From Candidatus Norongarragalinales archaeon (lineage in GTDB: Archaea; Micrarchaeota; Micrarchaeia; Norongarragalinales; Norongarragalinaceae): a stretch of 64,000 nucleotides of DNA. The stretch is taken from NCBI GenBank assembly GCA_038884755.1, contig JAWABJ010000001.1:576001-640000 (forward strand). The letters run 5' to 3'. The notes beneath the pieces were generated by a model. It did no database searches. It saw only the letters and a program-made list of their open reading frames with translations, and was not told the DNA's origin. How positions within the stretch are numbered: the first letter of the stretch is position 1; every line of letters starts with the position of its first letter. This document shows positions 4,048 through 32,115 of this stretch, piece after piece. The position numbers and the translations under genes are program-made.

Positions 4048-4842
4048 TTATGCCCAGCAGTTAGTTCCGCCTGCAATCCACGTTTCCCTGCACCTGTTGA
4101 TTTGCGCTATGTATCCTTGCGTGTCGTTCTCGTAGGAAGGAGCGTAAATGGGCATTATTTCTTCGGGCGTGTCCCTGCCGCGCGGCAGGTAGTGGCGCGA
4201 GTGCGTCATGTAATAGAAAAAGTGTTCGATTGAATTCTCGAAACTGTCGTAGCCGCAGTGCCCGTTAGAACGCCTGAAAGAGCAAAACTGCTTTCCAGGG
4301 GCATTGTAAACTATGTTTCCCCAAGCCAAGTGCTGCATGTATCCCCTTGCTTTCAATAAGCCCGATTCTTTCAAGCCTATGGCCATTGCAAACCAATCGT
4401 CAATGCGGTACTTGTCGCTTTTTTCGTAAATCAACTGCGCTGCGCTCTTTCCGCTGGGCTTGTCGCGAAAGCCGCACAAGGGAGATTTGTAATGGCACAA
4501 AATGCGTTCTATTTGCTCTGGCGAAAGCGAAGGCTTCGCTCCTTGAGCGAGTATTATAGACCTTCCGGAAGAGCGGACGTAAGAGCCGTACGGAAACGTG
4601 TAGCCGTCGCCTCCGGCTTGCCGCGAGGTTTTCGAGAGTTCGGTTTCGCTTTTGCCTGTAGCAACGCTCACTTCCTGCATGGTTTTTCCGCCCACGTCAA
4701 CCGAGTCTTTCGGAACGTCGACTTTAAAACCTAAAAAAATTCCTACGGCGTCGGGCGGCAGCCGCACGAGGGAAGTTTGGGCGTAAATTAAGGAAGAAAA
4801 GAAGGCGGTGAAGAGCAACAGCACAAAAACCGTTTTTCGCAT
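4048..4842 (-). CDS. Secreted glucosaminidase (GH73-like, lysozyme-fold) domain protein
   Basis: Sec signal (MRKTVFVLLLFTAFFSSLIYA/Q). The C-terminal half has IDDWFAMAIGLKESG (putative catalytic Glu), GN, YDSFENSI and TPEEIMPIYAP...YIAQI, a pattern resembling PF01832-like domains. Recognised by motif only. Confidence 0.65.
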   Translation of the reverse strand: MRKTVFVLLLFTAFFSSLIYAQTSLVRLPPDAVGIFLGFKVDVPKDSVDVGGKTMQEVSVATGKSETELSKTSRQAGGDGYTFPYGSYVRSSGRSIILAQGAKPSLSPEQIERILCHYKSPLCGFRDKPSGKSAAQLIYEKSDKYRIDDWFAMAIGLKESGLLKARGYMQHLAWGNIVYNAPGKQFCSFRRSNGHCGYDSFENSIEHFFYYMTHSRHYLPRGRDTPEEIMPIYAPSYENDTQGYIAQINRCRETWIAGGTNCWA

Positions 4843-4882
4843 GAAAACACTTTCTCAAAACGGCTTTTTGTTACTTTGCGTT

Positions 4883-5458
4883 TCAAGGTTTTTTCAGGAA
4901 AGACAAGAATGAAGTGTGCACTAGTCCCACGTTCTTGGGCCGCGTGCCTTTTTCGCGCACGAGCCACTCGCGCGCTATGCTTTCCAGCGAAAGCCAATGC
5001 TCAAAACCCTGTTTTTCCCCTTCGCTGACGAAAGCGTTGACTTGCTCGGCGTTCGGGAGAAAGCCTATGCACAACCCGCCTTTGCGCAGGCAAGCGAACG
5101 CATTAGCCAAGAGCATATGCGAGTCTCCGCAATCCAAAACCACGCAATCCAATTCCTTTTCTTCAAACCCTTCTGCAGCGTCTTTCAGCTTGAACTCCAC
5201 GCGGTCGGCAAAACCGGCTTTCGCCGCGTTTTTCTTCGCCAAATCCAAAAAATCCTCGCGGCGTTCGTAAGAATATACTTTTCCGTTCACACCAATCGCG
5301 TTGGCTAAAAACACGGTAAGCCACCCGCTGCCGCTGCCGGCTTCCGCAACGCGGTCTCCTTCGCCTATGCCTGCGTAGCCCAACAGCAAACCCGCGTCTT
5401 TGGGCAAGACGACTTGCGGGCCGCGCTTGAACTTGCGCCATTCGAAAGCCGGAATCAT
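4883..5458 (-). CDS. trmI: tRNA (adenine-N1, m1A57/58) methyltransferase, compact form
   Basis: KRGPQVVLPKD, EAGSGSG SAM motif, YERREDF, VVLD, RP...VHTSFL. Start placed at ATG 5458 because the longer ORF overlaps the tRNA. Confidence 0.9.
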   Translation of the reverse strand: MIPAFEWRKFKRGPQVVLPKDAGLLLGYAGIGEGDRVAEAGSGSGWLTVFLANAIGVNGKVYSYERREDFLDLAKKNAAKAGFADRVEFKLKDAAEGFEEKELDCVVLDCGDSHMLLANAFACLRKGGLCIGFLPNAEQVNAFVSEGEKQGFEHWLSLESIAREWLVREKGTRPKNVGLVHTSFLSFLKKP

Positions 5459-5494
5459 TTCAACGCCTTTTTGTTGTCGCTTGTTTGTTTGCAG

Positions 5495-5618
5495 AGCCCC
5501 AGGGGAGTTTCGAACTCCCGACCTCCTGTTTTCGCGTTTCTTTTCTCCCAAGGGTCTTTTCTTTTTGAAAGAAAAGAGGCTTTACAAAACAGGCGCTCTA
5601 CCACTGAGCTACTGAGGC
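5495..5618 (-). tRNA. tRNA-Thr(UGU) with a 52-nt intron at position 37/38
   Basis: Acceptor stem GCCTCAG/CTGGGGC with U73, D arm GCTC-AGTGGTA-GAGC, anticodon stem CCTGT/ACAGG, loop TT-TGT-A|A, T arm GGGAG-TTCGAAA-CTCCC. Exons are 5583-5618 and 5495-5530; no encoded CCA. Confidence 0.92.
5531..5582 (-). other. tRNA intron (canonical position)
   Basis: Removing these 52 nt gives a standard 72-nt cloverleaf. The intron contains TCTTTTCT and two AGAAAAGA copies able to pair with it. Confidence 0.85.
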
Positions 5619-5665
5619 AGTAAAGAAAATAGTTTGTGAAGAAGGGGAAAATAAAGCAAGGCGTT

Positions 5666-8600
5666 TTACGCCTCAAAACGCCTTGTTCTCACGAACAGCA
5701 CGCCCGCAAGCAAGACGCCCATCATCGCCGCAAACCACAACGCGTCTGCAGGCCAGGAAGGCAAGAGCAGGTTTTGCCTGCGGCGTTGGAACGAACCGTC
5801 GTCTGCCGGAGGCAAGGCGAACGGGTTGGTTCCGGGAACGCCGCGCGTTCCTTCTGGCGTTCCGATGAAGCTCATGCCTTGCGAGGCGAAACGCGGGTCC
5901 ATCGGCAAATCCTGGCCGTTGTATACGGTAATCGCGCCAGTGGAAGGGTTGAACGTGAATATTCCGCCGGGCCCTTTGGCCGCTTCAAGCAGCCCGGAGT
6001 CTTTAAAGCCGGGACCGTTGACGTTGATTATCGGCTGGCCTTGGGCATTGAGCCCGGTTCCGAAGGAAATGTTGCCCTTGTCCGTCGGGAATACGACGTT
6101 TCCGTTCGCGTCTGTGAAAGGCTGCCCCGTGATTTTGAATGTTTCCGTTGCGCCCGTCTTTTTGTCGGTTATGGTAAGCGTCCCATCGGGGTTGAACTTG
6201 TAAATCTTGTCCGGAGTTTCGAGAATCTGCATTCCGCCCTTCCCGCCTTGCGAGTCTTGCTGGATTTTCGCCAGCGCGTCTCGCAATTGCTTGACCACGT
6301 CTTCAAAACCAGTCTTCCCTCGCAAGTCGAGGTTCACTACGGGAATTATTTTTCCGTTGGAATTCACCGTCCCGCCTTTAGCGATGACGTCGGAAATAGT
6401 CTGCGCCTTGCCGTCACCTATGACGTAAACGAAAACGTACAGGCGTTTTACGACGGGGTCGTACTCAATTTTTCCCTTCTCTCCAATAATCGTTTTTAGG
6501 ATTCCTATTTCTTCAACGCCGAAATCCCTGGGAGAGGAGAGCGTTACGCTGCCATTGCCCAAAACGGTGAGGCTGACGCCTGCAGTGGAAGCACCCAACC
6601 CCGCCGTTTTTGCAGCTTGCTCTAGAGTTGGGGCGCGCGTCGCCACTCCCGCCTCGCCCAGCGAAGTTCTAGTGAAGGTTATCGAGTCTCCAGTGAACGA
6701 AGCGGTGCCAAGCGTAGTGTCCACGCTCGAGATTTTTCCGAACACTTTCTCCAAATTGGTTCCGTCGAATTCCACGAGTTTTTTCAGCTCGCTTTCGAAG
6801 CAGTTCGCCGCAGGGCAGGTTTTGTCCGCCAACGCCGCGCTTCCAGAAGCGCTTATTGAAATGAACGGCTTGTCGCCACAGTCCAACAACGTAGTAATAA
6901 TGTGGTTGGGCACTATCATTCTCGCTAATTCCTGTGAGCGCAGGATGCTCGAAGCGCGCAGTTTCCAGTAGAAGTCGTTGAAGTCGAACGCTACGCTGCC
7001 GTCCTTGTTTATTTTCTTCAGCCCGTTTTTAGAAATCACGAGCGCCCCGCCGTCTGCGGTCGGCAGGGTTTCTTCCAAATTGCATCCCGTTCCGTTCAGG
7101 GTGTCGAAAATCCCGCCTGGCACCATCCACGCCGAGCGGTCTACGTGCACTGCAACGATTTCGTCAGGCTGCACGAAACCTTGCTGGTCTTGCAGTTGAG
7201 TCTTGAGGTTGAGCACTTCGGTATATTTCGCAAGTTCGTTTTGCACCTTGTCGCCTTCGCTGCCGAAAGTGTTGGCGAAAGACTGGGAAACGTCTTGAAG
7301 CACGTTGGAAGCCTTTTGGCTCGCGGTTTGGTTGGCGCGGTTGGTGGCTTCGGGCAAGCGTTGGTAAGCGAGAATCTTGTACTGCGAGTCTCGGCAATTT
7401 GCAGTGTAAATCTGGGCTTGGTTTCCGATGTACCATTGCCAGGCAAGCAGCGGGTCTATCCAGCTCGTAACGTCTCCCACCGCCGCAGCGCCTGTGTAAA
7501 TATTTCTCCAAAACTGGCTGGCAGTTCTGAGCAAGGGCAGGTAAGAAGTAGCTAGAGTGAGGGCGTAGTCGGTGAGCACGGCAGTGCGGTATTTAGCCTT
7601 GAGTTCGTCTTGGATGTCTTTCGAGCATTCTATCCCCTTTCCGAAGTTGGCGTCTATGTTCAAAACTTCTTCTGCCACTAGAAGCGAGCCGGCGAGCCCA
7701 AGCGTTTGCCCGGCTTCGGCAGAAAGGCTGCGGAATATCAGAAAGGGCAGTGCAAGGGTAAGCAGGAAGTTGTAAGTGGCGCTGTCGAATTTCTTGTTCA
7801 AAACTGGGCGCGGGAGTATTTCGTTTGAAACCAAGTGCAATCCAGTGTATTTTTCCGCGCCGGGATAGCGCACGTCCTCAAAGTTCACCGCAAAAGAATT
7901 GCCTTTCCAAACGGTGTTTATCTTCCATCCGGTGTCCGAACCAATCGAGGTCAGCGAATCCCCGCTTTCAGAGGAGGAAGGAAAGTTGCCGATGAAAACT
8001 TTTCCTGCGAAAAACGCTTTGGACGGCGCGCCACCAGTGTATTCGGAAATCAGCTCTTGCACCTTGCCTATTCCGAAAAGGTTGGTCGCATCCCTGAATT
8101 TTTCCGCAACAGGCCGGTTCACCATGATTTTCAGGTATTTGTTTTCGTTGAATCCGGTTGCAGCAAAAAGATTGCGGGTAGCCATGTCGTAAGCAAGCCT
8201 GGCTGGCCCCATCCAAGCGGCGCCCATCATGAGGTTGTAAGAAACGCGGGGTACAGACTGTTTTTTCGCGCGTTCCCACGCGGCTTTCACAGGTTCCGAA
8301 CGCCTTATCTGGTATTCCAAGCCTTCCCTTTCAACCCGCTTCGGGTTCAGGTTGTGCGTGCTGAGCACGCTGTCGATGGTTTGGCCGGCTCCGATTTCTT
8401 CCCGAACCACCAAGGCTCCGCCAGTGTCCCTTACTTCAACCGCTTGCACAGGACGAATAATCGGATTCCCGTGAACGTCGAGAACGGGGTTTCCGGCAGC
8501 ATCCAACAACGGCTCGTCCCTCAAGTGCACCGTGCGCACTAAAACCTCGTCGCCGTTGGTGTTGGTGAAAACCTGGGCACCGGCGCGCTGTTCTATCGGG

Positions 8601-9769
8601 CCGTAAAGGTCGGTCAGCGACTTGTCTTGGAACCCCTTGCTTTGCAGCCTTGCCTGCTCAAGGTTTTGTTTTAACTCAATGTTAGTTTTGCGTATTTTCT
8701 CAATGCGGTTTATCATCGAAGTTGCGCCCAGGCTTATTCCAAGTGAAACGTACAAGTCAGCCCGGGACCACGCGCCCGTGAAAGCCATCCAGTCTTCATA
8801 AAAAGAAGGCAAGAGAATGTTCGCGCCGCCGTTAAGCGAAAGCGAGGAAATTATCGACCGCCCTACAAACCACTGGTTGCTCAAAGGGTCGTCGAGGTCG
8901 GCGTTCGTTTCGTTAGTTGGCGGGTAGATGTATTTCCCCGAAATGGTTTGGTTTCCTGGAATTCCGTAAGTCAAGTCCGAACCCAAAACCCCCAAGTAAG
9001 AAATCCTTCCTTTAATCGTTCCCTTCAACAAGCAAGAATCTGGATTCAACGCTTGCGCGGCTGCGACTTGCGCGTAAGTGATTTCCCGCTGCTTTCCGTT
9101 TTCCCCGACAGGCCCGGGAATTATCACTTTGAGGTTGGCGTAAGGCTCGGGCGTGCCTTGCGGCAGGGGTTGGACGGTCGGAATCTCGCGGTTTCCGCCG
9201 AGAAAATTGTTGAAAACCTGGTTCCATCGTTCCAAAGCGCTCGAACCCCTGCTGAGCTCTCGGCGCATTATTTCGTTAGCTTGCGAAACGGTGACTGCGG
9301 TGTTTTGCAAAACCTCGTCGGCATTGTCTTGCGAAGCGTCGTAATCCTGCACGTACTTCAACAGCTTTTCCTTCGGAACCCCGAACGCCTGCAGCGAAGC
9401 GAGAGTAACCTGTTGGTCCAAAACCGTCAAGGCTGGCGCTGGGTTCAAAGGAGCGTTCGGGTCGAGGGGGTTCGTAATTTTGGCGCCCTGCTGGTTCAAA
9501 GCAACTTCCAAAGGAACGTCTGTAAGCTGTTGAATTGGCTTTGCTGCAGTGTTAGCCCAAAGGGTTTCCCTCTCCGAGTCGGAAATGGTGCTTACCGTGC
9601 AGCTGCCGCCCGACTTTATTTCCGCGGGATAGGGAATGGTGGACGTGGGCTTTGAAGTCGGAGAGGGAGTCGGGTCTGCCGCGAAGGCGAAGGGAGAAAA
9701 CAATTGGACTAAGAAAAGGGAGATTAAGAATAACGAAAAGGTTTTGTGCGGAAAACGCCTTGGCAGCAT
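5666..9769 (-). CDS. Large secreted/surface protein with C-terminal membrane anchor (hypothetical)
   Basis: ~1367 aa. Signal peptide (..FSLFLISLFLVQLFSPFAFA/A), Pro/Thr linker, internal hydrophobic helices, beta-rich C-terminal third, and an LPSWP-TM-RTRR tail. Confidence 0.8.
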   Translation of the reverse strand: MLPRRFPHKTFSLFLISLFLVQLFSPFAFAADPTPSPTSKPTSTIPYPAEIKSGGSCTVSTISDSERETLWANTAAKPIQQLTDVPLEVALNQQGAKITNPLDPNAPLNPAPALTVLDQQVTLASLQAFGVPKEKLLKYVQDYDASQDNADEVLQNTAVTVSQANEIMRRELSRGSSALERWNQVFNNFLGGNREIPTVQPLPQGTPEPYANLKVIIPGPVGENGKQREITYAQVAAAQALNPDSCLLKGTIKGRISYLGVLGSDLTYGIPGNQTISGKYIYPPTNETNADLDDPLSNQWFVGRSIISSLSLNGGANILLPSFYEDWMAFTGAWSRADLYVSLGISLGATSMINRIEKIRKTNIELKQNLEQARLQSKGFQDKSLTDLYGPIEQRAGAQVFTNTNGDEVLVRTVHLRDEPLLDAAGNPVLDVHGNPIIRPVQAVEVRDTGGALVVREEIGAGQTIDSVLSTHNLNPKRVEREGLEYQIRRSEPVKAAWERAKKQSVPRVSYNLMMGAAWMGPARLAYDMATRNLFAATGFNENKYLKIMVNRPVAEKFRDATNLFGIGKVQELISEYTGGAPSKAFFAGKVFIGNFPSSSESGDSLTSIGSDTGWKINTVWKGNSFAVNFEDVRYPGAEKYTGLHLVSNEILPRPVLNKKFDSATYNFLLTLALPFLIFRSLSAEAGQTLGLAGSLLVAEEVLNIDANFGKGIECSKDIQDELKAKYRTAVLTDYALTLATSYLPLLRTASQFWRNIYTGAAAVGDVTSWIDPLLAWQWYIGNQAQIYTANCRDSQYKILAYQRLPEATNRANQTASQKASNVLQDVSQSFANTFGSEGDKVQNELAKYTEVLNLKTQLQDQQGFVQPDEIVAVHVDRSAWMVPGGIFDTLNGTGCNLEETLPTADGGALVISKNGLKKINKDGSVAFDFNDFYWKLRASSILRSQELARMIVPNHIITTLLDCGDKPFISISASGSAALADKTCPAANCFESELKKLVEFDGTNLEKVFGKISSVDTTLGTASFTGDSITFTRTSLGEAGVATRAPTLEQAAKTAGLGASTAGVSLTVLGNGSVTLSSPRDFGVEEIGILKTIIGEKGKIEYDPVVKRLYVFVYVIGDGKAQTISDVIAKGGTVNSNGKIIPVVNLDLRGKTGFEDVVKQLRDALAKIQQDSQGGKGGMQILETPDKIYKFNPDGTLTITDKKTGATETFKITGQPFTDANGNVVFPTDKGNISFGTGLNAQGQPIINVNGPGFKDSGLLEAAKGPGGIFTFNPSTGAITVYNGQDLPMDPRFASQGMSFIGTPEGTRGVPGTNPFALPPADDGSFQRRRQNLLLPSWPADALWFAAMMGVLLAGVLFVRTRRFEA

Positions 9770-9870
9770 GATTACAATAAGGGCTCGCGCTCTTTTAAAA
9801 AACATCTTTACCGGCGTAAAACGAGTGGGAGAAACGCTTTTTTTATATCCGCTTTGAGTAAAGCGTTCGT

Positions 9871-11421
9871 ATGGTTTCCCTCGCCGCCATAGCTTACTAC
9901 GCGTTTTTGTTCGTAGGAGGCATCGGATTCGGATATTTCGTGCTGCGCTTGACCAAACCCGACGCTAGGCTCATGCGCCCGAACGAAAAGCTCGGCGCTT
10001 CGGCAGTATACGGCTTCGCGCTGTTCGCGATAGCGTTCGCGCTCGACTATTTCATCGCCGGAGAAACACGGTTTTTCGAGGCAGCCGGATTTCTCCCAAT
10101 CACGCTTTTCTTCACGATTTTGCTGAGCGTTTTTTTCCTCAAGGTCGCGGGAGCGTTTTCAAAACCAGAATTCCTCGTAGTGGGGGTTCCGGCGGTTAAA
10201 ACCAGCGCGGCTGTGGCCGCGGAAAAAAGCATTTTGTCGCCCACTGCAATCCGAGAGCCTGCGCCGCAGGCTCAAACGCCTTTTAAAACCCAAACTCAGC
10301 CGTTCAAGGAAATAACTTCTTCAAGCGCGCCGGTCGCCGGCGTTGCTATAGGAGACTTGGTTTCAAAACGCGCGCCTGCCGAACAAAAACAGACTCCACA
10401 AATTGTGAAAAAAGAAATTCCTGCCGCGCCAACGCCCACGCAGCCTGCAGCGCTTCCAAAGAGGGAAACGCCCTTGCCTTCGCAACAACCGCCTCTTTCA
10501 AAAATTGATTTGCAGTTCGAGCCGCGCAAAAAACCCGAAGAGCACAAGAAAGCGGGAATGGACGGGTTTTTCGGCGGAATCGCGAATGCGTTGGGAATTG
10601 GAAAGCGCGAGCAGGGCGAAATCCAAATCGCTAAAGTAAAGGAAGAGCGGGTCGCTCCGAGCGAGATAGCAAAGCAAATCGCCCCAAAAAAACAGGAAAT
10701 TCCGGAAAAGAATGAGGCGGGTGCAATAGGGGAAGACGCGGAGTTGAAGGAAAAGGAATTGAAGAAAATAAAAGAGGCGGAGTTGGAGGAGATAGCGAGA
10801 GAACTCGCGGGCGAGGAGAAGGGTGGAATCGAATCTGAGATAACGCACAGGCGGTATTTGGAAAAAAGCGCGGGACAGCAAAAACCGGCGGCGCAGGAAA
10901 AGAAGAAGGAAGTTTCTGAAGAGGAAGAGTTTGAAAGCATGGTGCAGGAGGTTTACAACCAGCTTCAAATAAGCAAAACGCGCGCGGAAGTGAGCGACAA
11001 GCTCAAGCTTTCACCCCCGCCGGCCGAAGGCAAGGCCGAACAGAAGATATCCGCAATGCAGGCGGAGCCTTCGCAGCCGCAGCTTTCGCCCATCTCCTTG
11101 TTTTCCGAAGAGCCGGCGAAAACCGCACCAACGCCTTTGCCTTCACCTTCATCGCTGTTCGACCAGTTGAACGCAATTTCCGGCGGTGGCGCTGGCACAG
11201 CGCAAAAAACCGAGGCCGACGTGAAGTTCGTGAAAATCCCTGCGAACGGTGCGGGATGCCCGCGCTGCCACGCAAGCAACTCGCGCATAGTCTTCTGTCC
11301 TTACTGCGGAAGCGGAATGTGCGCCAATTGCACGCCGCTCATCACGCCAAAAGAAGACGGTTTCGATTACGCTTGCCCCAAGTGCGGGGAAAACGTTTTC
11401 GTGAAAAGGCAGCCTCAGTGA
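9871..11421 (+). CDS. Membrane protein with low-complexity/coiled linker and C-terminal double zinc ribbon
   Basis: Three N-terminal TM helices, a Pro/Glu/Lys-rich middle, and C-terminal CPRC, CPYC, CANC, CPKC. Confidence 0.8.
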   Translation: MVSLAAIAYYAFLFVGGIGFGYFVLRLTKPDARLMRPNEKLGASAVYGFALFAIAFALDYFIAGETRFFEAAGFLPITLFFTILLSVFFLKVAGAFSKPEFLVVGVPAVKTSAAVAAEKSILSPTAIREPAPQAQTPFKTQTQPFKEITSSSAPVAGVAIGDLVSKRAPAEQKQTPQIVKKEIPAAPTPTQPAALPKRETPLPSQQPPLSKIDLQFEPRKKPEEHKKAGMDGFFGGIANALGIGKREQGEIQIAKVKEERVAPSEIAKQIAPKKQEIPEKNEAGAIGEDAELKEKELKKIKEAELEEIARELAGEEKGGIESEITHRRYLEKSAGQQKPAAQEKKKEVSEEEEFESMVQEVYNQLQISKTRAEVSDKLKLSPPPAEGKAEQKISAMQAEPSQPQLSPISLFSEEPAKTAPTPLPSPSSLFDQLNAISGGGAGTAQKTEADVKFVKIPANGAGCPRCHASNSRIVFCPYCGSGMCANCTPLITPKEDGFDYACPKCGENVFVKRQPQ

Positions 11422-11424: not shown

Positions 11425-12273
11425 TCAAGCAAAATCTTCTTTCGACTGCCAAATGCAAATGCGCGTTTTGTATTTGATGAATTTCGAGTCGAGCGAGCCG
11501 CCGCTTGTATCCGAGTACAAAACTTGGAACGGGGATGAAACCGCGAGAATCTGGTATCCGGAGCGCAATGCGGAAAAACACCCTGGCACTTCGCTTGCCG
11601 CACCGTTCTGTGCCTTGTTGCTATATCCTCCCGCCGTTTCCACCCCTACGACGTTCAAGTCTTTGGAATTCGTTATCTCGGGCCCGATGTAATGCACTAT
11701 GCCCTGCGGGGTTCCGCCCGCAATGCCGGGCGCGTCTTGCGACAAGATAGCTTCGAAGTAATACTTGTATCCGGAGAAAGAGAAGGGCTTCATGAGTTCC
11801 TTCAGCGCGCAGCGCACTGCAGTGCGTCCCGGCACTCTCGCTCCGCCGGGCGGCGTGCCGAAACTGTCGTCGAGCTTTGGCATCGCCCCGCCTACGGCAA
11901 GCGTTGGGTCGGAGTCGGCCAAATCGCGTTTCATCAAATCCGTCACGCGCAGGGTTCCTGGATAGTCTTGCAACTGCGCACAGCCGTCGTCGGAATCGTC
12001 CAAATCGTATTTTGCGTTGGTTTCAAAACCGCTTTGCGTGAGGGCTTTCTTGTAAACGTCAATGCCGTCGCTTCCCACGCCCGTGAGCGTGGACGCGTCG
12101 ACGTAATACAGCGCTTTGGAAACGCTTTGCATGTAATTCAGCACGTACGCACTTCTCAAAACCTGGTCTTGGTCTTCGCCCCACGTGCCGACGAAATTGA
12201 AAATCAAGACCGACGAGAAAATGGACACCAATAGGAGTATTATCGCGTCGGTGATTGCCGCTTGGCTTTTCAT
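11425..12273 (-). CDS. Class III signal peptide (pilin-like) protein
   Basis: MKS/QAAITDAIILLLVSIFSSVLIF; ATGA overlap with the upstream gene; four Cys in the globular domain. Confidence 0.75.
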   Translation of the reverse strand: MKSQAAITDAIILLLVSIFSSVLIFNFVGTWGEDQDQVLRSAYVLNYMQSVSKALYYVDASTLTGVGSDGIDVYKKALTQSGFETNAKYDLDDSDDGCAQLQDYPGTLRVTDLMKRDLADSDPTLAVGGAMPKLDDSFGTPPGGARVPGRTAVRCALKELMKPFSFSGYKYYFEAILSQDAPGIAGGTPQGIVHYIGPEITNSKDLNVVGVETAGGYSNKAQNGAASEVPGCFSALRSGYQILAVSSPFQVLYSDTSGGSLDSKFIKYKTRICIWQSKEDFA

Positions 12274-12845
12274 CTCGTAGAATTTCCTTTCCATGTAATC
12301 ACGTTTACCACACCCAGTCCGTTCGTGAAACTGTCTGCGTCAGGACAGGGCACTGCGACTGGAAAGCTGGCGAGGACGCTGTCCCGCGGTTGTTCCAAAA
12401 GCCCGTTTGAAGGCACGTTGGGGTCGTTCGAGCAGGAAAACCACGTTTCCCCCACGCTCTCTGAAGCATCGACGTAAAACGGGCTTGTTTTCTCTGTTTC
12501 CGGAGCATAAGGATTCAACTGAGTGTTGGCGCTTTTGTAGTCTATGGGAATGCCGTTGCAAAATCGCTTTAGGGTAATCAAATATTTTACTCCTAGGGAA
12601 GCGGCGCGCGGCTTGACCTTTCCGTCGCATGTTGCTGCAAGCGTGCTGTTGTCTATGAAGCCCGTTTCCGTGACGAGGTACGACAGCGAAATGAGTCCGT
12701 CGCGGATTTCAAGCTGTTTTGCTTTCGCGGAAATCAATTGGTTCGCGTAAATGATTGTTCCGGTGAAAATCAGTATGGCGAATACTATTGGGAAAATGCT
12801 TGGAATGTCGTCGCCAAGCGGGCCTATGTACGCTTTAAGCTTCAT
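12270..12845 (-). CDS. Pilin-like protein
   Basis: MKLKA/YIGPLGDDIPSIFPIVFAILIF followed by a Cys-containing domain; lies inside the pilin operon. Confidence 0.7.
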   Translation of the reverse strand: MKLKAYIGPLGDDIPSIFPIVFAILIFTGTIIYANQLISAKAKQLEIRDGLISLSYLVTETGFIDNSTLAATCDGKVKPRAASLGVKYLITLKRFCNGIPIDYKSANTQLNPYAPETEKTSPFYVDASESVGETWFSCSNDPNVPSNGLLEQPRDSVLASFPVAVPCPDADSFTNGLGVVNVITWKGNSTR

Positions 12846-14223: not shown

Positions 14224-14409
14224 TCAAGAAAAAGCCAAGGCGATTGAATTCAAAACCTGCCTGGCGGTGTCGGTTGTTTGCGAGGCAGTTCCGCTCGCCT
14301 GGTTGAACAGCGGCTTTACGAAAGTCACCAAAAGGATTACGGCTATCGCTATCACGATAATCATGTAAATGGGAGTCCAATTCTGCCCTTTGCTCGCATT
14401 GCCGCGCAT
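14224..14409 (-). CDS. Minimal 61-aa pilin
   Basis: SKG/QNWTPIYMIIVIAIAVILLVTFV then a short amphipathic tail. Confidence 0.7.
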   Translation of the reverse strand: MRGNASKGQNWTPIYMIIVIAIAVILLVTFVKPLFNQASGTASQTTDTARQVLNSIALAFS

Positions 14410-14915: not shown

Positions 14916-14998
14916 TGAAAATTCACCCCGAACAACACCGACTGAAAGCATTACAGAATCGTGCTTTTAAAGCTTGCAATTTGCGGCCGAGCGCGGGT

Positions 14999-22478: not shown

Positions 22479-22545
22479 ATCAACCGCCTTTCGGGGGGAA
22501 AAGCAAAACAAATGTTATTAACGGCGGGAAGATTAAAGCGTTTTC

Positions 22546-23106: not shown

Positions 23107-23158
23107 ATAGAAAAAAAAAGGCTATTAATATATGTGGCGTAGAAGTAATCGGTTTCGC

Positions 23159-24691: not shown

Positions 24692-24745
24692 AGCGCGCAA
24701 AAAAAAACGCAACTATTTTAATAGCCCAAACCCACTATTCTCTAC

Positions 24746-27700
24746 ATGGCTGAAGGGGGTAAAGGTGTTTTGGATTCACTGGGTGAAGCTTACGAAAATT
24801 TCGTCTCTTCACTCGAGGAAAAAGGCGTGCCTTCTCCCAGAACGCTCGTGCCAGTCGCAGCTGCGGTAATAATCATTGCAATAGCACTGGTGCTGTTGCC
24901 TTCTTTGCTCAATCCCACCACCACGATAGAGTTCAAGGTGTTGAATTCGCGGGGCGCGCCTGTTGCAGGAGCGGACGTCACTATTTACGCGGGCGAAAAG
25001 CCGTTCAACAGCCGCTCTGAGAGCGACGGGACCGTGGTTTTCGATAAAGTGCCGCAGCAGGCAGAGTACGAAGTTTCGGTAAGCGCGTTGGGATACCAGC
25101 CGAAGAAAGGCGTGGTGGAAAACAAGGGCGAGGTTTTCCTTTCAGGAAACACCGCTTCGCAAAAAAAGACTTTGAAAATCAAGGTTTTGGGCTCGGACAG
25201 GAGCACGCCAGTGGGAGAGGCGAGCGTGGTCTTGAGTTTCGACGACGGGACCAAGAGAAGCGAAGACACGGATGACTGGGGGGACGCGATTTTCGATTTG
25301 AGTGGCGTAGACAAGACAATCGCCACTGTTGAAGTAAGCAAGGAAGGTTTTAAGTCGAAAACTAAGACGGTGAACGTTGACGACGGAACGATAACCATAG
25401 ATTTGAAGGAAACGGGTGAGGGAAAGAAAAGCGAAGCACTGAACGGCGATTTCATAGTCAAAGTTTCAGGCGGCGAAGCCGAAGGCGTGGTAGTTTCCCT
25501 CGTCGACCTTTACACGCAAACCCCGATTTCAAAAACCAAAGTAGGTTCAGACAACCAGGCGGTGTTCGCACGCCTTGCATTCGGGTCAAGGTTTGCAATC
25601 AACGCTTTCGACCCTGAAGGGAGGTTTGAAACCTACGCGGGACAAGAAATGGTTTTCGAGGAAAACCTGCAGGAAGAACACATAGCGTTAATCAAAAAGG
25701 AAGGCGCGGAAGACGAGCTTGTAATAACCGTAAAAGGCAAGGACGGAGAGCGCATTGCGGGCGCCGAAGTCAAGCTTTACGACAAGACCACGCGCACGTG
25801 GTACGCCGAAGACTCGACGGACGCGAGCGGAAACGTTAGGATTGCGGTCGCAGGGAGAACCTATTATGCGACCGCGTTCAAGGAAGGCTATTTGCCCGGC
25901 TTCGCCGAAAACGCGAGGCGCGGCGACGCGAAGACCATTGAACTGGAAAAGGAAGGCGCTGACAACTCGGCCGAAGCGTCCGTCCTCGTCAAGGAAAACG
26001 GCGAGCCTCTGCCGGACGCTGAAGTGAACTTTTTCAAGGCGAACGGCTTTCCACTAGGAATTCCCACTGTTTTCACGAGCGCCGACGGTTCCGCCGTCTT
26101 CAACATGCCTTTGATTCTCGACGGGAAGAACTACAAGGCTTACGCTTCCGCTAGCGTTGGAAACAAGATTGGAAAAAGCGATTTGGTGGACATGGCGGAA
26201 GGAATTGAATTCGTCATAACAGTCCAAGCTCCTCCCGCTAACGTCACGCTGATGGCGAAAAACCTTTTGACCAATGAAAGGATTTCCAACGCGTTGTTTT
26301 CGGTCACCGATGCAGGCGAAAGCATAATCAACGACTGCTCTTCGCCATGCACAATCACGGTTCCAGCGCAAGTCGAAGTGAAAATAATCGCGAGCGCAGG
26401 CAATTACATGCAGACTACCACCGCGCCGGTTTCTTTCGAGCCAGGGGAAACGAAAACGGTGGAAGTGCTCATGTACCCGCTTTCAATTTCCAAGAAAAAT
26501 TCCCTTGCGTTCCTAGGGTTTTTCGACAATAACGGGAACAACGTGGTTGAACTGCAGAGGGCGCAAGAGTACGACGCGAAATTCATGCTGGCTTTGGGAG
26601 AGAAGGGCGACGCTTTCGCTTTCTTCCAGGCAGGCGAGTCTTCCGACGCGCTTTCCGAACCTTTCGAACTCAAGGGGTTCAAAAGCGCCTTGAAACCCAA
26701 AACCGTTTTCGCCGGAGAAAATGCGGAAAGCGTTTGCTCGCCGGAAGAAAAAACCCAGCCCGAAGCCTTGAAGTGGGTCGAGCTCGATTACACCAACCAA
26801 CTGGGTGCGGGTGAAATAGTTTTGGAAATCGCGGTTAGGCCGGACGCGCCCGCAAGGAGCGAAGTGAAAATCCTGCACAGGGCAGGCGGGTTCATCGGAG
26901 CAAACGGAATTCCATTCACCTCGCCGCAGGACGACGATTTGATAATGCAATTGCTTTCGCAAAGCTCTAAAGGCAGGAGCGTGTTCTGCAGCGCCAAAAC
27001 CGGCGTTGCAACCGCCCGCGTGCACGCAAACCCCTTGACTTGCAAGGACGGGCTGTGCAGCAGGATTATTCTCGAGCGTGAGGACGGGTTCAAGTCTTCC
27101 AACAACCTCGTCGTTCCAGTAGGCCAGCAGTTCAAAATGAATTTCGACTTGTTCGCGCCGGACGAGAGCATAGACAGCGTCGCGCTTGAAGAATCGCCTT
27201 CGTTCGAAATAATTTCCGGCAGTGCGGGAGAAGCGCATTTCGCCGAACGCACTTTCGCAGCGACGGGAACGGAAAAAACGTCGGGAAGCATAACCATGCG
27301 CGCGTTGAGGCAAACCGCTAGGGCGGCATTGAGATTGAAGGCTGGCTTCGCCAGCGAAAAACCGCCCATGACGCTCGAAAAGTCGGTTGAAATAACTGGA
27401 ACTAACTCGTTCCAAATTTCCGTCTCCCCCCAGCAGGCGGTTCTCGGCGAAAGCGTGAGGGCGCAGGCCATAGTGCTCGACTCGTTCTCCCGGCCTGTGA
27501 CTGACGCAGAAGTGAGCGTGCTGAACTGCGAAGGCTCGCCGCGCGTGTTGCAGGAAACCAGGACCGTTCTGGGAAGGAACGCGCAAGGCGAAGGCAGGGA
27601 CGGGAAATACGAATTCCGTTTTACACCGCAGACCGTCGGCAAAATCTGTTTTGAAGCCAGGGCCGACGGTTTCGAAACCAAAACAAACGAAGGCATTGAA

Positions 27701-30700
27701 GTCGGGGCGGAAGACTTTTTGACTCTTGACAAAGAGAAAATTTCTTTCGAAGGCGTTGCAAGCGAACAGACGCCTGCCGCCGTCGAAGTGAAAAGCGCTC
27801 TGAAGGGAGCGAAAATAAAAATCCAGGCTGGAGTGAACGCCGAGTGCGCGTTGCTCTTGAGCGTTGTTCCAGCAGTAAAGGAAAAAGTCGAAGACTCGGG
27901 GCAATTCAACGTGCGCCTCAACTCTTTCGACGCAATCGAGCCAACCGAATGCTCGGTTACGTTCATAGGCGAAGCCAATCCGACAACGAAAGCCACGGTA
28001 ATCCTTCCGGTTTCGATAAGCACGAGCGCGGGCCCGCCGCCAGAAGCGCAGCAGTGCGACCCCAACGCTTGCCTCACGACTTCCGAAGCGCAAAGCGCAG
28101 GCTGCTCGCCGAGAAGCGGATTCGCCTGCGAAGACCCTGCAAAAAGCTGTTTCGTGTGTGGAAGCGGGCTGGACGGCATAAGCAACATTTCGCTGAGCGT
28201 AAGCAACTTGAAGAACGACAGGCGCGTTTACCCGTTGTTTTTGGACTTCGACCCCCGCTTCAACGAAGAATTCGACTTGGTTTGGGACCAGCAAATCAAC
28301 ACCCGCCTCAACGGGCTTCCACAGCAATACCCGCAGGGAGGCGGAATGCCTTACGACGCTTGGGCCACTCAACAGTACGGCGCTTCGCCTTACTACTCCC
28401 CCAACTACCCGTTTGGAATAGGACAAGGCTACTACTCACAATACCAATACAATCCCGAATTCCAAAACCCCATTCGCACTGGAGTTCCGCCCGAACTCCT
28501 GGGTTCAACCTACCCGTTCCAGCAGACAGGATTGTTCGGCTATTCGCAAAGCCAACTTGCGATTCCCCCGCAATTCATGATGCAACAAGGTTTTGGAAGC
28601 ATATGCGGCGGTTTTGCAGGCGTTCAATGCCCGCCTGGTTTTGCTTGCGACAACTCGCTTGGAAGTGCGGGAAGGTGCGTTCCTACAGGCGGCGCTTACC
28701 CCGGACTGCAGCCGGGCCAGCCCGTAGTCCCGCCTTACTGTTATAATTACGTCTACAACTCGCAATCCGCATTCAACTACCAATACTCTCAAGTGGGGTT
28801 CAGTGCGTATACGCCTGGAGTTCCTTACGGCTTGCCTCCGCAGTGCCAATATCCGCTCGTATGCCAAAACCCGCAAGCGTGCGGGTACATTGCAGGCGGC
28901 GCGCAAGGCTTGATGAGCGGCGGAGTGCCGTTCGAATGCCAGTATCCGCAAGTGTGCAACAACCCTTCGGCATGCAGGCTGTTCGGAGGTCTAGGCGGGC
29001 AGCCGCAAGTGCAATTCAAACAAGTCGCACAGCCGTTCAGGCTTACAGTAGAATTGACTAAAGCGCAATTGGTCGTTTCAGCCGTTTACACGGGCGACGA
29101 ATACTTTTTTGCTGGCGGAAGGCCTGCGAGCGCAAGAGGGTTTTTGATAATCCGCGACTCGCGCGGCACTGAAATCAAGAGAATAGCAATTACGGTGCAA
29201 GTCGGCTATTCCGGAAGCATACCCCCACAAGGCGGATTCGGGTTGCCAGGAGGAATTCCACCTGCTGGAGTTCCGCCTTACGGGTTCCCGTCGCGCATTC
29301 CGCCCGAATGCTTTGCTTTGTTCTACCCGCAAGCTTACGGCGCTGGGCAATTCGCCTTGCCTCAAAACATGGTTGTCGCTTTCAACGCGTATACCGGAAA
29401 AGGACAGGCTGAATACTCGTTCGATGCTCCGCGCATCGGGAAAATAACTTGCCAAACGCAAACAAGCGTGAGCGATGTTTCCTGCTCGATGACTGAAAGG
29501 AAAGAAAGCGTGCAAACCGTGCAGGGAAGCCGCACGGTAAACAAAACGGTTGCCAAGCAAGTTGCGGTTTTGACGGCAAAAGCAAGCAAAGCCCGAAAGG
29601 ACGCGGAAGCACAGGGTAAAGTTTCGTTCGTCTGGAGCGTTCAAGCGCAAAACAAGATAGAACAAGATTTCGTCCTGAAGCCTGACGAGTTCAAGCCGCA
29701 AAAAATACAACTGCTGAAATTCCTGCAAAACCAGGATTCCGCATCTTTCGAAGTTGAAGTCGAGAAAGAAAACTGCGAGTTCAAAGGCGACGTCGCGAAA
29801 GTAACCTGCAACGGAACCATAAAAGCAGAGACAACCGGCAGCAAATTCGGGGAAGGCGTTCTCACAATCAAAAGCTTGAACGACAACCAAGTGAGGGAAA
29901 TTCCAGTCGTAGTTTCCAACATCGTCCAAAACACGTTCAAGATAGATTCCAGCGGAAAGGGAACGAACAAAATCACTTTCAACCCCAAGCTGGACTATGC
30001 TAAAGAAGGAGCGAAAGCTTTGGGAATAGGAATTCCAGAGTTTTTGGAAGGCGAAGGGGGGAAATGCTACAGCGTCGACGCGGCGTTGGAAAACAACGAA
30101 GTGAAGATAACCGCCGATTGCACCAACCTGGTCAAAGACAACAAACTCCCAGACTTCGTAAATTACTACGTAGTAAAACTCGAACTGCCTGAAAACGCCG
30201 GCGGAAGGGCGTATCCCATTCCTTTCATAATCTCCAACAAGCCAGTCCAATTCGACTTTACCAAACCAGTCATCATCAGCCCGACTACCGCGCCCAAAAG
30301 TTCGGAAGTAACAGTCAAAGTTTTGTACTTGATGCAAGACGACCCTGCGTTCAGGGTTGTCGAGGCAACAGGCGTTTCGAAAGACGGAAAAATCAAGAGG
30401 ATTTTGGCGAAAGCAAGCGGAAGCGAAGCAAACGCGCTTTCGTTCAAGATGGTGAACACGGAAGGCTCGATTGCAGAAGTGAAAGCTTCCACCAGAGTAA
30501 ACGGAAAAACGGTGGAGAACACAAAGAAAATCGGGCTGACCGATGAAAAAGCCGCAAGCGCACAAGGAAAGCCCGAAGAAAAACAAGCGGCCTCTTCTAC
30601 AGGCGGGGAAGAGGGTTCAGGCGGTGGAGTTTCAACAGGAAGCGAGGGCGGCGGGGCAACTGCAGTGGAATACGGAACGTGCACCGTGGAAGCTGGGAAA

Positions 30701-31816
30701 AGGACGAAAGAAACCACTAAAGACTCCAGCAGGATTCTCAACAAGGGAGTTTCCAGCGGTTTGAAAGGACAATGTGGCGACGTTTCCCAATGCACTTCAA
30801 GCGGAGGAAAGGCGTACAGCGGATTCTGTTCCGGCAGTTCAAACATTCAATGCTGCGTGGGTGGAAAAACTGGCGAGGCAACAGCAGGCCCGACTGCGCA
30901 AGGCATTCTTGAAGCGAAAATCGGAACCGGCAGGTTCGAAAACTTCAAGGAAAAAAGCGACTTCGGCACTATCGAAGACATGAACGGAAGAATCAAAATA
31001 CCGCTTTCCTTGATTCCCGAGGGAGATTTCGGGGTTGTAATGTCTTTGTACTACACCAAAAACGCGGGGCTTTACTCCGCGGGAGACAGGGCCGAAAGTG
31101 CTTACGTAAATTACAGGCGCGACAAGAAAACGTTCTACTGGAAGAGCCCGGACGGGGAAAAAATATCCGAAAGCATCAAGCTGGTCAAAACCGAAGGACA
31201 GGAATTGGTGTTCATAGACCCGGCATACGAGTTGAGCAGGCTCATTGACGAACAAGGAAAGTGGAAGGACAACGGAAAACCAGCCGAAAGCACTTACAAC
31301 GCGGAATTCAAGATTAAGAAAGGCGACGCGCTCAACGGACAGCAAATCGCTTACGCGAAAGTTGCAAAACCCGTCACCATCCACGCTGCTCCGCAGTCCG
31401 GACTGTGCGACGAACAAGAAGTCAGCTTGTACGTTCCAGGGCACGGAACCAGTGTTTATTCCTGCAAAACCAAGTCTGGCGGTTCTTACGAAATCAATCT
31501 GAAGGGGATTTGCGACGTCAACATTGCAACCAAACCCGGCATTTGGCACTACGATGCGGGGTACAACGCGTTTTTCGAAGTGAAGAAAGACGGCACTTAC
31601 AGGGACTGCTTTGCGGACTGGCAGTGGGTTTCTGAAGTTGCCGCGTGCGCGAAAGGCGTAAACCCGTGGGACGGAAGCGGCTTTAAGGAAGACCCGTTGC
31701 CCGTGCCTGCTGCAGAAACATACTGCCACGGCTTGAAAGTCTCTAAAGTAAAGTGGCTCGTCGACCGTTCTGGAGAAAAAAGCGGAATAGCGGTAAAACT
31801 CCTGATAGAGGATTGA
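24746..31816 (+). CDS. Giant membrane-anchored surface protein (carboxypeptidase-regulatory-like/Ig-like repeats, Gln/Pro/Tyr/Gly-rich and Cys-rich modules)
   Basis: 2356 aa. N-terminal TM, repeated V.D..G.PV.GA.V...T...G....F beta-sandwich units, a low-complexity QPYG region and small Cys modules. Confidence 0.85.
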   Translation: MAEGGKGVLDSLGEAYENFVSSLEEKGVPSPRTLVPVAAAVIIIAIALVLLPSLLNPTTTIEFKVLNSRGAPVAGADVTIYAGEKPFNSRSESDGTVVFDKVPQQAEYEVSVSALGYQPKKGVVENKGEVFLSGNTASQKKTLKIKVLGSDRSTPVGEASVVLSFDDGTKRSEDTDDWGDAIFDLSGVDKTIATVEVSKEGFKSKTKTVNVDDGTITIDLKETGEGKKSEALNGDFIVKVSGGEAEGVVVSLVDLYTQTPISKTKVGSDNQAVFARLAFGSRFAINAFDPEGRFETYAGQEMVFEENLQEEHIALIKKEGAEDELVITVKGKDGERIAGAEVKLYDKTTRTWYAEDSTDASGNVRIAVAGRTYYATAFKEGYLPGFAENARRGDAKTIELEKEGADNSAEASVLVKENGEPLPDAEVNFFKANGFPLGIPTVFTSADGSAVFNMPLILDGKNYKAYASASVGNKIGKSDLVDMAEGIEFVITVQAPPANVTLMAKNLLTNERISNALFSVTDAGESIINDCSSPCTITVPAQVEVKIIASAGNYMQTTTAPVSFEPGETKTVEVLMYPLSISKKNSLAFLGFFDNNGNNVVELQRAQEYDAKFMLALGEKGDAFAFFQAGESSDALSEPFELKGFKSALKPKTVFAGENAESVCSPEEKTQPEALKWVELDYTNQLGAGEIVLEIAVRPDAPARSEVKILHRAGGFIGANGIPFTSPQDDDLIMQLLSQSSKGRSVFCSAKTGVATARVHANPLTCKDGLCSRIILEREDGFKSSNNLVVPVGQQFKMNFDLFAPDESIDSVALEESPSFEIISGSAGEAHFAERTFAATGTEKTSGSITMRALRQTARAALRLKAGFASEKPPMTLEKSVEITGTNSFQISVSPQQAVLGESVRAQAIVLDSFSRPVTDAEVSVLNCEGSPRVLQETRTVLGRNAQGEGRDGKYEFRFTPQTVGKICFEARADGFETKTNEGIEVGAEDFLTLDKEKISFEGVASEQTPAAVEVKSALKGAKIKIQAGVNAECALLLSVVPAVKEKVEDSGQFNVRLNSFDAIEPTECSVTFIGEANPTTKATVILPVSISTSAGPPPEAQQCDPNACLTTSEAQSAGCSPRSGFACEDPAKSCFVCGSGLDGISNISLSVSNLKNDRRVYPLFLDFDPRFNEEFDLVWDQQINTRLNGLPQQYPQGGGMPYDAWATQQYGASPYYSPNYPFGIGQGYYSQYQYNPEFQNPIRTGVPPELLGSTYPFQQTGLFGYSQSQLAIPPQFMMQQGFGSICGGFAGVQCPPGFACDNSLGSAGRCVPTGGAYPGLQPGQPVVPPYCYNYVYNSQSAFNYQYSQVGFSAYTPGVPYGLPPQCQYPLVCQNPQACGYIAGGAQGLMSGGVPFECQYPQVCNNPSACRLFGGLGGQPQVQFKQVAQPFRLTVELTKAQLVVSAVYTGDEYFFAGGRPASARGFLIIRDSRGTEIKRIAITVQVGYSGSIPPQGGFGLPGGIPPAGVPPYGFPSRIPPECFALFYPQAYGAGQFALPQNMVVAFNAYTGKGQAEYSFDAPRIGKITCQTQTSVSDVSCSMTERKESVQTVQGSRTVNKTVAKQVAVLTAKASKARKDAEAQGKVSFVWSVQAQNKIEQDFVLKPDEFKPQKIQLLKFLQNQDSASFEVEVEKENCEFKGDVAKVTCNGTIKAETTGSKFGEGVLTIKSLNDNQVREIPVVVSNIVQNTFKIDSSGKGTNKITFNPKLDYAKEGAKALGIGIPEFLEGEGGKCYSVDAALENNEVKITADCTNLVKDNKLPDFVNYYVVKLELPENAGGRAYPIPFIISNKPVQFDFTKPVIISPTTAPKSSEVTVKVLYLMQDDPAFRVVEATGVSKDGKIKRILAKASGSEANALSFKMVNTEGSIAEVKASTRVNGKTVENTKKIGLTDEKAASAQGKPEEKQAASSTGGEEGSGGGVSTGSEGGGATAVEYGTCTVEAGKRTKETTKDSSRILNKGVSSGLKGQCGDVSQCTSSGGKAYSGFCSGSSNIQCCVGGKTGEATAGPTAQGILEAKIGTGRFENFKEKSDFGTIEDMNGRIKIPLSLIPEGDFGVVMSLYYTKNAGLYSAGDRAESAYVNYRRDKKTFYWKSPDGEKISESIKLVKTEGQELVFIDPAYELSRLIDEQGKWKDNGKPAESTYNAEFKIKKGDALNGQQIAYAKVAKPVTIHAAPQSGLCDEQEVSLYVPGHGTSVYSCKTKSGGSYEINLKGICDVNIATKPGIWHYDAGYNAFFEVKKDGTYRDCFADWQWVSEVAACAKGVNPWDGSGFKEDPLPVPAAETYCHGLKVSKVKWLVDRSGEKSGIAVKLLIED

Positions 31817-31818
31817 AA

Positions 31819-32115
31819 ATGGCTTTCGAAACCCTAGCGCTCGCAGTTGTCCTTGTTTTCGCAGCCAACGCTTTTTTGTATTACCGATGGAAGGCGCTCA
31901 AGGAAATTTACGACGAAAAACAGCAGGGCAGCCGAATGGTTTTCGCCAGGGAAATGCTCGACACAGTTTACGCCACGCCATCGCACTACCGCCGCGAAGC
32001 AAGCCTAGTCGACGAAGCAAAAGGGATTGCCGCGCAGTTGAAAAGAATTGCCGACGACGATTTGGTGCAACTGCACCAAAAGCTCGTTTCGGCAGACCAA
32101 AAGCTCTCCGCGTAA
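31819..32115 (+). CDS. Small single-TM hypothetical protein
   Basis: 98 aa starting 2 nt after the giant gene; TM helix then YYRWK and a helical tail. Confidence 0.65.
   Translation: MAFETLALAVVLVFAANAFLYYRWKALKEIYDEKQQGSRMVFAREMLDTVYATPSHYRREASLVDEAKGIAAQLKRIADDDLVQLHQKLVSADQKLSA

Follow-up and report, generated by a model that had tools for sequence, protein, structure and literature searches.

A conserved subclade 4F-type filament locus in Norongarragalinales with a presumed role in cell contact

General features of the locus

A stretch of 64,000 nucleotides from the genome of a Candidatus Norongarragalinales archaeon (GCA_038884755.1, contig JAWABJ010000001.1, positions 576,001 to 640,000; hereafter the window) carries between its positions 4,048 and 32,115 a conserved type IV filament locus of the subclade 4F type. 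We presume, with slightly more confidence than doubt, that this locus builds a dedicated cell-contact pilus together with an anchored surface protein of 1379 amino acids (aa) and a membrane-tethered surface protein of 2356 aa, a secreted hydrolase being optional. The source genome (926,659 bases, 93% complete) encodes five secretion-type ATPases and two A24 prepilin peptidases.

The original prediction, made from the DNA letters alone, had described an atypical pilus operon flanked by a sortase, two giant surface proteins and a wall hydrolase. All genes it placed between 4 and 32 kb were recovered as open reading frames (ORFs) and domain matches, including the interruptions by a tRNA, leuS and trmI, and its six co-oriented pilin-like genes correspond to five larger ORFs and one ORF of 61 aa, all on the minus strand. 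The principal genes are the following.

5666..9805, minus strand: 1379-aa surface protein, predicted to be exported and without known family, likely archaeosortase substrate (conserved tail)
11425..12294, minus strand: 289-aa pilin-like protein, predicted minor pilin (N-terminus conserved in 26 sequences)
12270..12845, minus strand: 191-aa pilin-like protein (FIGPLGDDIPSIFP), predicted minor pilin (26 sequences)
12855..13508, minus strand: 217-aa pilin-like protein, predicted minor pilin (24 sequences)
13511..14179, minus strand: 222-aa pilin-like protein, predicted minor pilin (23 sequences)
14224..14409, minus strand: 61-aa pilin-like protein, second major-pilin candidate (20 sequences)
14445..14951, minus strand: 168-aa pilin, arCOG02981-like in its N-terminal part (hidden Markov model (HMM) and hhalign)
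14999..17212, minus strand: 737-aa single-gene fused TadC-type platform, homolog of the 4F arCOG01814 (611-column alignment)
17261..19510, minus strand: 749-aa assembly ATPase of the subclade 4F type (motifs and trees)
22546..23106, plus strand: 186-aa archaeosortase/exosortase-family protein (TIGR04178 above cut-off)
23132..24691, plus strand: 519-aa large pilin-like protein, candidate tip pilin (15 sequences)
24746..31816, plus strand: 2356-aa N-terminally anchored surface protein (domain scan and orthologs)

The 1379-aa protein would comprise about 1370 aa if started at an inner Met, and the 519-aa pilin 510 aa if started at its second Met.

Assignment of the assembly ATPase to subclade 4F

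The 749-aa ATPase retains an intact Walker A motif, Asp box, Walker B motif and His box, matches PF00437 above the cut-off (E 6e-20), and its catalytic motifs align with those of 2OAP and CpaF. It was matched in all 61 genomes compared (its own and 60 of the same order), the best matches sharing approximately 60-94% identity. When its C-terminal half was searched at E 1e-40 in a sample of the phylum, it was detected in 18 of 18 genomes of the order, in 4 of 6 genomes of family f21 and in none of 127 others. Orthologs at approximately 50% were furthermore found in Iainarchaeota and Altiarchaeota genomes.

According to a search of 72,556 plasmid records the top match was a Haloterrigena ATPase classified as 4F, with 44% over the core and no alignment of the N-terminal 300 residues. 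In two quick trees (56 and 26 rows) with flagged long branches, the window ATPase and the Haloterrigena pair fall into one clade (Shimodaira-Hasegawa-like approximate likelihood ratio test (SH-aLRT) support of 100), outside of which the classified clade 2 ATPase, the bacterial TadA and the other ATPases of the genome are located. Within 4F, one branch with a support of 99-100 unites Norongarragalinales with the Iainarchaeota-type genomes and the group of genome G203. Monophyly of the window ATPase with the clade 2 anchor (GI 389849140) and two relatives was rejected by the approximately unbiased (AU) test (p-AU 5.2e-5), the clade 2 grouping having been defined after inspection of the first tree. 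Moreover, the motif LR(L/M/F)G(D/E) (ALRLGD-type) precedes the Walker B motif in 42 of 42 rows of the window ATPase clade, whereas LRxRP occupies this position in 13 of 14 rows outside of it, the remaining row not having been read.

System 2 (clade 2), represented by the PilB3/C3 adhesion pili of H. volcanii, resembles the window locus by its description in the accessible part of PMC13705601, namely in its extended ATPase, single platform, several pilins and large adhesin-like neighbours. However, tree, AU test and motif (LRQRPD in the clade 2 anchor) led us to reject this classification. An archaellum was likewise dismissed, as the ATPase reached 145.6 bits against a cut-off of 550 with the FlaI equivalog NF058587 and no Arl model scored above its cut-off at the locus. 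Based on their sequences, the ATPase and the fused platform are assigned to subclade 4F, a group of unknown function, and not to System 2.

Known members of subclade 4F, as far as covered by the available sections of PMC4858521, include H. volcanii PilB2/PilC2, the system of Haloterrigena pHTUR04 and N. equitans NEQ425. The text to Figure S5 lists the Haloterrigena ATPase beside H. volcanii GI 292654911 and N. equitans NEQ425, and in the supplement its platform and two pilins encoded nearby are placed in the same subclade. The window locus shares with them a long arCOG01818-type ATPase with ALRLGD, a single fused arCOG01814-type platform and apparently, in the N-terminal helix above all, an arCOG02981-like pilin. 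It differs in six further pilin-like families without curated match, in the non-aligning ATPase N-terminus and in the linkage to an archaeosortase and the 1379-aa and 2356-aa proteins, with no cetZ2 in the locus. The Cys-rich N-terminal ATPase domain is described as frequent but not obligatory in 4F. Its CxxC motifs are present in all 11 rows of Iainarchaeota-type and G203-group (Altiarchaeota) genomes within the subclade of the window ATPase, but are absent from the window ATPase and lost in 11 of 12 Norongarragalinales rows, L082 having kept them. In the text available of PMC9856176, arCOG01818 in a 4F setting is named pilB2 and the role of such systems is given as unknown; the ATPase thus stands outside the characterised adhesion and DNA-uptake clades, in agreement with the original prediction. 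In the pilus operon that it called atypical, the ATPase and the fused platform are of the 4F type and not unprecedented.

Many ATPase orthologs are split into two matches inside open frames of approximately 940-1,790 aa (e.g. G014:C1:143171-146998, G034:C39, G060:C53), with split points near query positions 462-484 or 540. This pattern suggests that inteins are inserted at several positions. A further and more distant pair of 4F-type ATPase and platform was observed at L232, L218, L239 and L240 (genomes G264, G203, G259 and G260), and several other Altiarchaeota also carry two such pairs. The idea that autotrophic Altiarchaeota keep the exact locus, which would argue against a role towards hosts, could not be maintained: G203 yielded no CdhC, and the other sampled Altiarchaeota have only more distant 4F ATPases.

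Platform protein and pilins

The platform shares 21% identity with the 4F arCOG01814 TadC protein over 611 columns (E 9e-29) and has approximately ten hydrophobic segments, of which Pfam recognises a single T2SSF stretch just below the cut-off (PF00482, 23.9 bits versus 25.2).

Class III signal peptides consist of basic residues, a small residue and a hydrophobic helix, and alignments revealed this pattern as the conserved N-terminus of all seven pilin-like families. In the 289-aa pilin it takes the form (R/K)(G/S)-QAA followed by the helix, and homologs of the 191-aa pilin were detected in Iainarchaeota with E-values of 1e-21 to 1e-23. The 168-aa pilin appears in its N-terminal part to be homologous to arCOG02981, the proposed major pilin of 4F (HMM E 2e-6; hhalign 82.6% over 71 columns, mostly of the N-terminal helix), and its gene is often duplicated in relatives. 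The 61-aa pilin, whose ORF is shorter than the initial floor of 80 aa, lacks a globular head and weakly matches ComGC (E 0.0099). For the 519-aa pilin the structure model (predicted local distance difference test (pLDDT) 70.9) displays a 68-residue N-terminal helix and a Cys-rich head; a structure search with it returned generic helices only (best Z 5.2). The Haloterrigena arCOG10216 gene gave no match to the HMMs of the six operon pilins. Two prepilin peptidases (PF01478, A24) score above the cut-off in the genome, none of them in the locus. According to the available sections of the 2016 classification no cognate pilins had been found for the nanoarchaeal 4F ATPases (PMC4858521); the seven pilin-like genes described here are of the kind that was missing there.

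The set of pilins also bears on whether the locus might specify a short pseudopilus similar to a type II secretion system (T2SS), which would push the giant proteins or hydrolases through the cell's own surface layer (S-layer). The seven pilins are mostly single-copy with distinct and highly conserved N-terminal helices, which would suit such a piston, as would the strong conservation of the ATPase over the order and the four other secretion-type ATPases of the genome that could supply ordinary pili. However, the locus includes a probable homolog of the proposed major pilin of 4F, which has often been duplicated in relatives, and no secretin-like gene was recognised among the proteins of the locus, to which the search was confined. 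No piston would be needed in any case, since each giant protein brings a membrane anchor of its own and the hydrolase a signal-like N-terminus. Taken together, the pseudopilus is quite unlikely, and no result supported the short T2SS-like apparatus proposed by the original prediction, given the probable major-pilin homolog and the additional 61-aa pilin, nor did any result point to the breaching of an envelope.

Archaeosortase and its presumed substrate

The 186-aa archaeosortase exceeds the cut-off of TIGR04178 (24.6 versus 23 bits), and the Cys, Arg and His are conserved in an alignment of 18 sequences. It remains below every named subfamily cut-off; the archaeosortase B model TIGR04144, for instance, yielded E 7e-5 and 22.8 bits versus a cut-off of 150.

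The 1379-aa protein possesses a signal-like N-terminus and a C-terminal tail composed of LPSWP(E), a hydrophobic transmembrane (TM) segment and basic residues, which recurs, in part in variant form, in almost every one of 44 inspected orthologs and reads LPSMPE, LPWAPD or LPLTPE in distant ones. A profile of this tail searched over the genome gave one strong match, the 1379-aa protein itself (E 1e-16), the next best reaching 0.002, and the tail matched none of the CTERM models. Sequence analysis indicates that the LPSWPE-TM tail is likely the signal of the archaeosortase and the 1379-aa protein its substrate. The pair resembles the known archaeosortase systems (ArtA/PGF-CTERM, ArtB/VPXXXP-CTERM, ArtD, pacearchaeosortase) in family signature, the three conserved residues and the motif-TM-basic architecture of the tail. 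It differs from them in the low subfamily scores, in a tail outside the CTERM models and in being tied to a pilus locus.

The 1379-aa protein was detected in 63 of 68 genomes of the order and has homologs in the genomes G201, G202, G203, G204 and G205. Its model over residues 505-1335 (pLDDT 74.4) comprises a helical bundle and several beta-rich domains. Fold searches with this part yielded nothing clear (TMq not above 0.10 with Foldseek; Z of 7.2 over 77 residues as the best VIA result), although single domains may have been missed in so large a model, and the ESM Atlas contained no usable match. A pore-forming or translocon role is not supported, the middle of the protein being only mildly hydrophobic and its fold without clear match.

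The 2356-aa surface protein

The 2356-aa protein has a single TM segment (residues 37-54), a conserved stalk of carboxypeptidase-regulatory and immunoglobulin-like repeats and a middle stretch consisting to 47% of Q, G, Y and P. Its N-terminal half was found in 55 of the 68 genomes of the order and its variable distal half in 22, of which 21 belong to its own family. Four paralogs of 1,838-3,040 aa are arranged as two tandem pairs elsewhere in the genome (G000:C1:260839-272055 and 301716-317005). The distal part also contains a Cys-rich module (C-x5-C-x3-GG...G-x-C...CC; window approximately 30560-30940) without Pfam match, which we take to resemble modules on some eukaryotic wall hydrolases.

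Conservation of the gene order

In the 16 Norongarragalinales loci covering the six pilins of the operon, as well as in G201, G202 and G205, these occur in one order; apparent swaps in a 17th locus (G033) result from overlapping ORF calls, so that no true rearrangement among the six was observed. Where the ATPase and the 1379-aa gene were both located (58 genomes), they share a contig in 11 genomes and lie within 30 kb of each other in 10 of these. For the 2356-aa gene, 15 of the 50 genomes with located ATPase have both on one contig, 14 of them within 30 kb. The remaining genomes have the genes split over contigs and are mostly uninformative on linkage. The archaeosortase gene adjoins that of the 519-aa pilin in 14 loci and lies beside the ATPase gene in 6 of 6 genomes examined of the G203 group. 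Since the gene order recurs across families, the genes are clustered more than expected by chance, and the comparison bears out the earlier suggestion that archaeosortase, 519-aa pilin and both giant proteins travel with the ATPase lineage. The outcome which the original prediction had named as its refutation did not occur.

The true unit could alternatively comprise only the ATPase, the platform and six pilins, with the flanking surface genes being independent and located nearby by ancestral order. This would be consistent with the retention of leuS and trmI alongside, with the dispersal of the locus in family f10 and partly in Iainarchaeota and with the existence of paralogous giants. However, in the G203 group and in G204 archaeosortase and ATPase are adjacent without leuS in between, and the order from the pilins to the 1379-aa gene persists in G201, G202, G204 and G205 (some of the profiles for distant searches included L115 from G204, so that the scores of G204 are not independent). 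After rearrangement in G006 and at L089, furthermore, the platform gene is located directly upstream of those for the archaeosortase, the 519-aa pilin and the 2356-aa protein, all on one strand. Finally, the 1379-aa gene was not found in 4 of 4 genomes of family f21, which have a more distant 4F ATPase. We regard it as very unlikely that the surface genes are independent of the unit.

Several observations nevertheless weigh against a dedicated cell-contact pilus equipped with both surface proteins. The linkage is not obligatory: on long contigs of family f10 (G039, G043, G047, G051) no other part of the locus lies within 40 kb of the ATPase gene, which is separate in most Iainarchaeota loci too. 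Some of the gene order may simply be inherited, because leuS and trmI have likewise held their positions. The 2356-aa protein belongs to a set of five paralogs in its genome, it had no match at E 1e-45 in family f7 (0 of 6), and for the giant next to the G204 locus another of the paralogs is the better match. A second archaeosortase-like gene is present elsewhere in the genome (G000:C1:647750-648250). Furthermore, the tree behind the 4F assignment contained a single classified 4F anchor with a close relative of it and a single classified clade 2 anchor, but neither archaellum sequences nor references from the rest of clade 4.

Hydrolase, passenger genes and a possible attack on bacteria

The remaining genes of the locus are the hydrolase gene at its border and those interspersed between the components described above.

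4048..4842, minus strand: 264-aa secreted GH73/glucosaminidase-like (lysozyme-fold) predicted peptidoglycan hydrolase, optional accessory (homolog profile)
4883..5551, minus strand: trmI/GCD14 tRNA methyltransferase, housekeeping passenger (PF08704)
5495..5618, minus strand: intron-containing tRNA, passenger (RF00005, 56.4 bits)
9871..11421, plus strand: 516-aa zinc-ribbon protein, transcribed towards the pilin operon (position kept in nearly all loci that span it)
19632..22511, minus strand: leuS, housekeeping passenger (often between ATPase and archaeosortase in relatives)

The 264-aa hydrolase has one N-terminal hydrophobic, signal-like stretch and shares an invariant Glu, Asn and Tyr and a YAP motif with its homologs (7). 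As a single query it matched no PDB entry and, at similar length, only itself in the protein collection, and its score against PF01832 was low (E 0.033, 16.8 bits, cut-off 30.2). By contrast, PF01832 was detected in 6 of 7 family members (best E 2e-5). Because of the invariant Glu and YAP and the matches of the homolog profile to a phage cell wall hydrolase (8yxk, E 7.5e-4) and FlgJ (E 0.006), the protein is likely a GH73-like peptidoglycan hydrolase. The secreted wall hydrolase of the original prediction is hence maintained as a predicted enzyme on the evidence of its homologs, while its lysozyme-fold match as a single protein is weak and its distribution patchy: it occurs in 9 of the 68 genomes of the order, sometimes fused to M23 or NlpC/P60, for which reason an obligatory role was rejected.

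Hydrolases of this kind might indicate that the locus is a machine for attacking bacteria, with the pilus and giant proteins docking on a bacterial cell and secreted or tip-borne hydrolases opening its wall for feeding. M23 was found in 30 and NlpC/P60 in 18 of the 68 genomes of the order, and any of the three families in 42; for the hydrolase count 41 of the 44 M23 rows were used, three second-domain rows being left out. Outside of the order and f21, M23 was found in 17 of 127 Micrarchaeota. In 10 genomes from families f1 and f2 a predicted wall hydrolase lies no more than 15 kb from the 1379-aa gene, and the enzyme family at this place differs between genomes; of the hydrolase domain matches on the same contig as that gene, 16 are near and 7 far. 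Moreover, five reciprocal-best orthologs of the 2356-aa protein, all from family f10 (G039, G043, G055, G058, G060), bear an M23 peptidase with the HxxxD and HxH motifs in their distal halves. An extracellular M23B peptidase has also been reported from Norongarragalina, with predation or parasitism raised as a possibility in the accessible text of PMC8561730.

On the other hand, none of the three families was detected in 26 of the 68 genomes, and M23, the only family searched there, was found in 0 of 5 Iainarchaeota/Altiarchaeota-type genomes with the locus. The hydrolases track trmI equally well, being located beside it in G040 and G056 even though the 1379-aa gene is on another contig. All five M23 fusions belong to two genera of a single family and probably reflect one event, and in the four of these genomes inspected around the ATPase or the giant the locus is dispersed. 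In the other ten of the 15 distal halves scanned with Pfam, including that of the window protein, no family scored above its cut-off, and the C-terminal part of the window protein has no Pfam match. Related genomes in these counts are furthermore not independent, and according to the abstract of PMC11291902 all cultivated DPANN need archaeal hosts. A bacterium-attacking machine thus appears rather improbable. Host attack, as proposed earlier, would be at most an accessory role, because the hydrolase is present in 9 of 68 genomes and M23 in none of the five distant ones with the locus. It is equally doubtful that Norongarragalinales are archaeal parasites or predators of bacteria with the locus as their attack organelle, in which the 4F pilus would dock on a bacterium, the archaeosortase-anchored 1379-aa protein of unrecognised fold form the contact site and hydrolases, either secreted next to it or borne on the tip of a giant stalk protein, open the wall.

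Archaeal peptidoglycan hydrolases have already been published (Strock et al. 2025, PMC12352652). As far as the main text goes, in which pili and "Micrarch" do not occur, they resemble the enzymes described here as predicted secreted glucosaminidases (Danwoldo with PF01832), M23 and NlpC/P60 proteins. The window enzyme differs by its position near a pilus locus and has no recognised wall-binding domain, and in relatives M23 is fused to the distal part of a membrane-tethered protein of 2,100-2,900 aa.

Tandem secreted M23 and M23-GH73 proteins sharing a short N-terminal tag with two Cys were observed at L130-L131 (G020:C30:24675-26990) and L255 (G014), and a 572-aa membrane-anchored NlpC/P60 protein is encoded at G000:C1:65702-67420. 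The ORF of trmI overlaps the tRNA, which was detected by Rfam and missed by ARAGORN and whose anticodon was read by eye as TGT (Thr). Because of this overlap the true start of trmI is probably the ATG near 5458; the gene comes after the 1379-aa gene in many relatives. The 516-aa protein consists of three N-terminal TM segments, a long low-complexity linker and the C-terminal zinc ribbon.

The GC content is even over the locus (0.51-0.55), with a restriction island of lower GC upstream. This island (window 121-3803, GC 0.46) encodes a type I restriction subunit R and a YgjP-like metallopeptidase directly beside the 264-aa hydrolase. A 120-aa ORF with a single TM segment (31753-32115) overlaps the end of the 2356-aa gene and has no homolog in the compared loci. 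The separate Tad-like operon announced at 46-57 kb is indeed present (window 46112-57621) and encodes a 1203-aa VWA protein and a 506-aa ATPase besides two separate T2SSF/TadC-like genes and several pilin-like ORFs. In the tree the 506-aa ATPase joined the clade 2 anchor with an SH-aLRT support of 96, a join marked as one between long branches.

Proposed assembly and mode of action

If the locus builds a dedicated cell-contact pilus, as we presume, its assembly may be envisaged along the lines of type IV filaments in general. One of the two unlinked A24 peptidases would mature the seven pilins, and the ATPase would drive their polymerisation on the fused platform into a shaft of the 168-aa (or 61-aa) subunit. 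The 222-, 217-, 191- and 289-aa subunits together with the 519-aa pilin may form the priming and tip complex. The archaeosortase would cleave the 1379-aa protein at its LPSWPE tail and anchor it to the surface, where it could serve as a pad or portal for the filament. Extending from the cell, the stalk of the 2356-aa protein may attach to a partner cell; its outer half would differ from partner to partner and, in some lineages, bear a wall-cutting enzyme.

Significance

In a literature search mostly without subscription papers no publication describing the locus was found; the supplements of PMC13705601, of which a part was available, may list it under 4F. Pili, pilus, peptidoglycan, lysozyme, adhes and secretion do not occur in the main text of PMC12892359 on Micrarchaeota. 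New in the present analysis are the 4F placement, the pairing of archaeosortase and tail, the spread over three lineages and the M23-tipped orthologs.

In the accessible text of the 2026 survey, type IV filament genes of DPANN are described as mostly scattered (PMC13705601). Little is known of how DPANN archaea locate their hosts and keep hold of them, and the locus provides an ordered parts list for a 4F-type system which is common to Norongarragalinales, Iainarchaeota and one group of Altiarchaeota. It furthermore offers a candidate for a new archaeosortase signal and a 1379-aa protein of no recognised family. Should the link to the hydrolases prove functional, this would be a sign of bacteria serving as food for an archaeal lineage.

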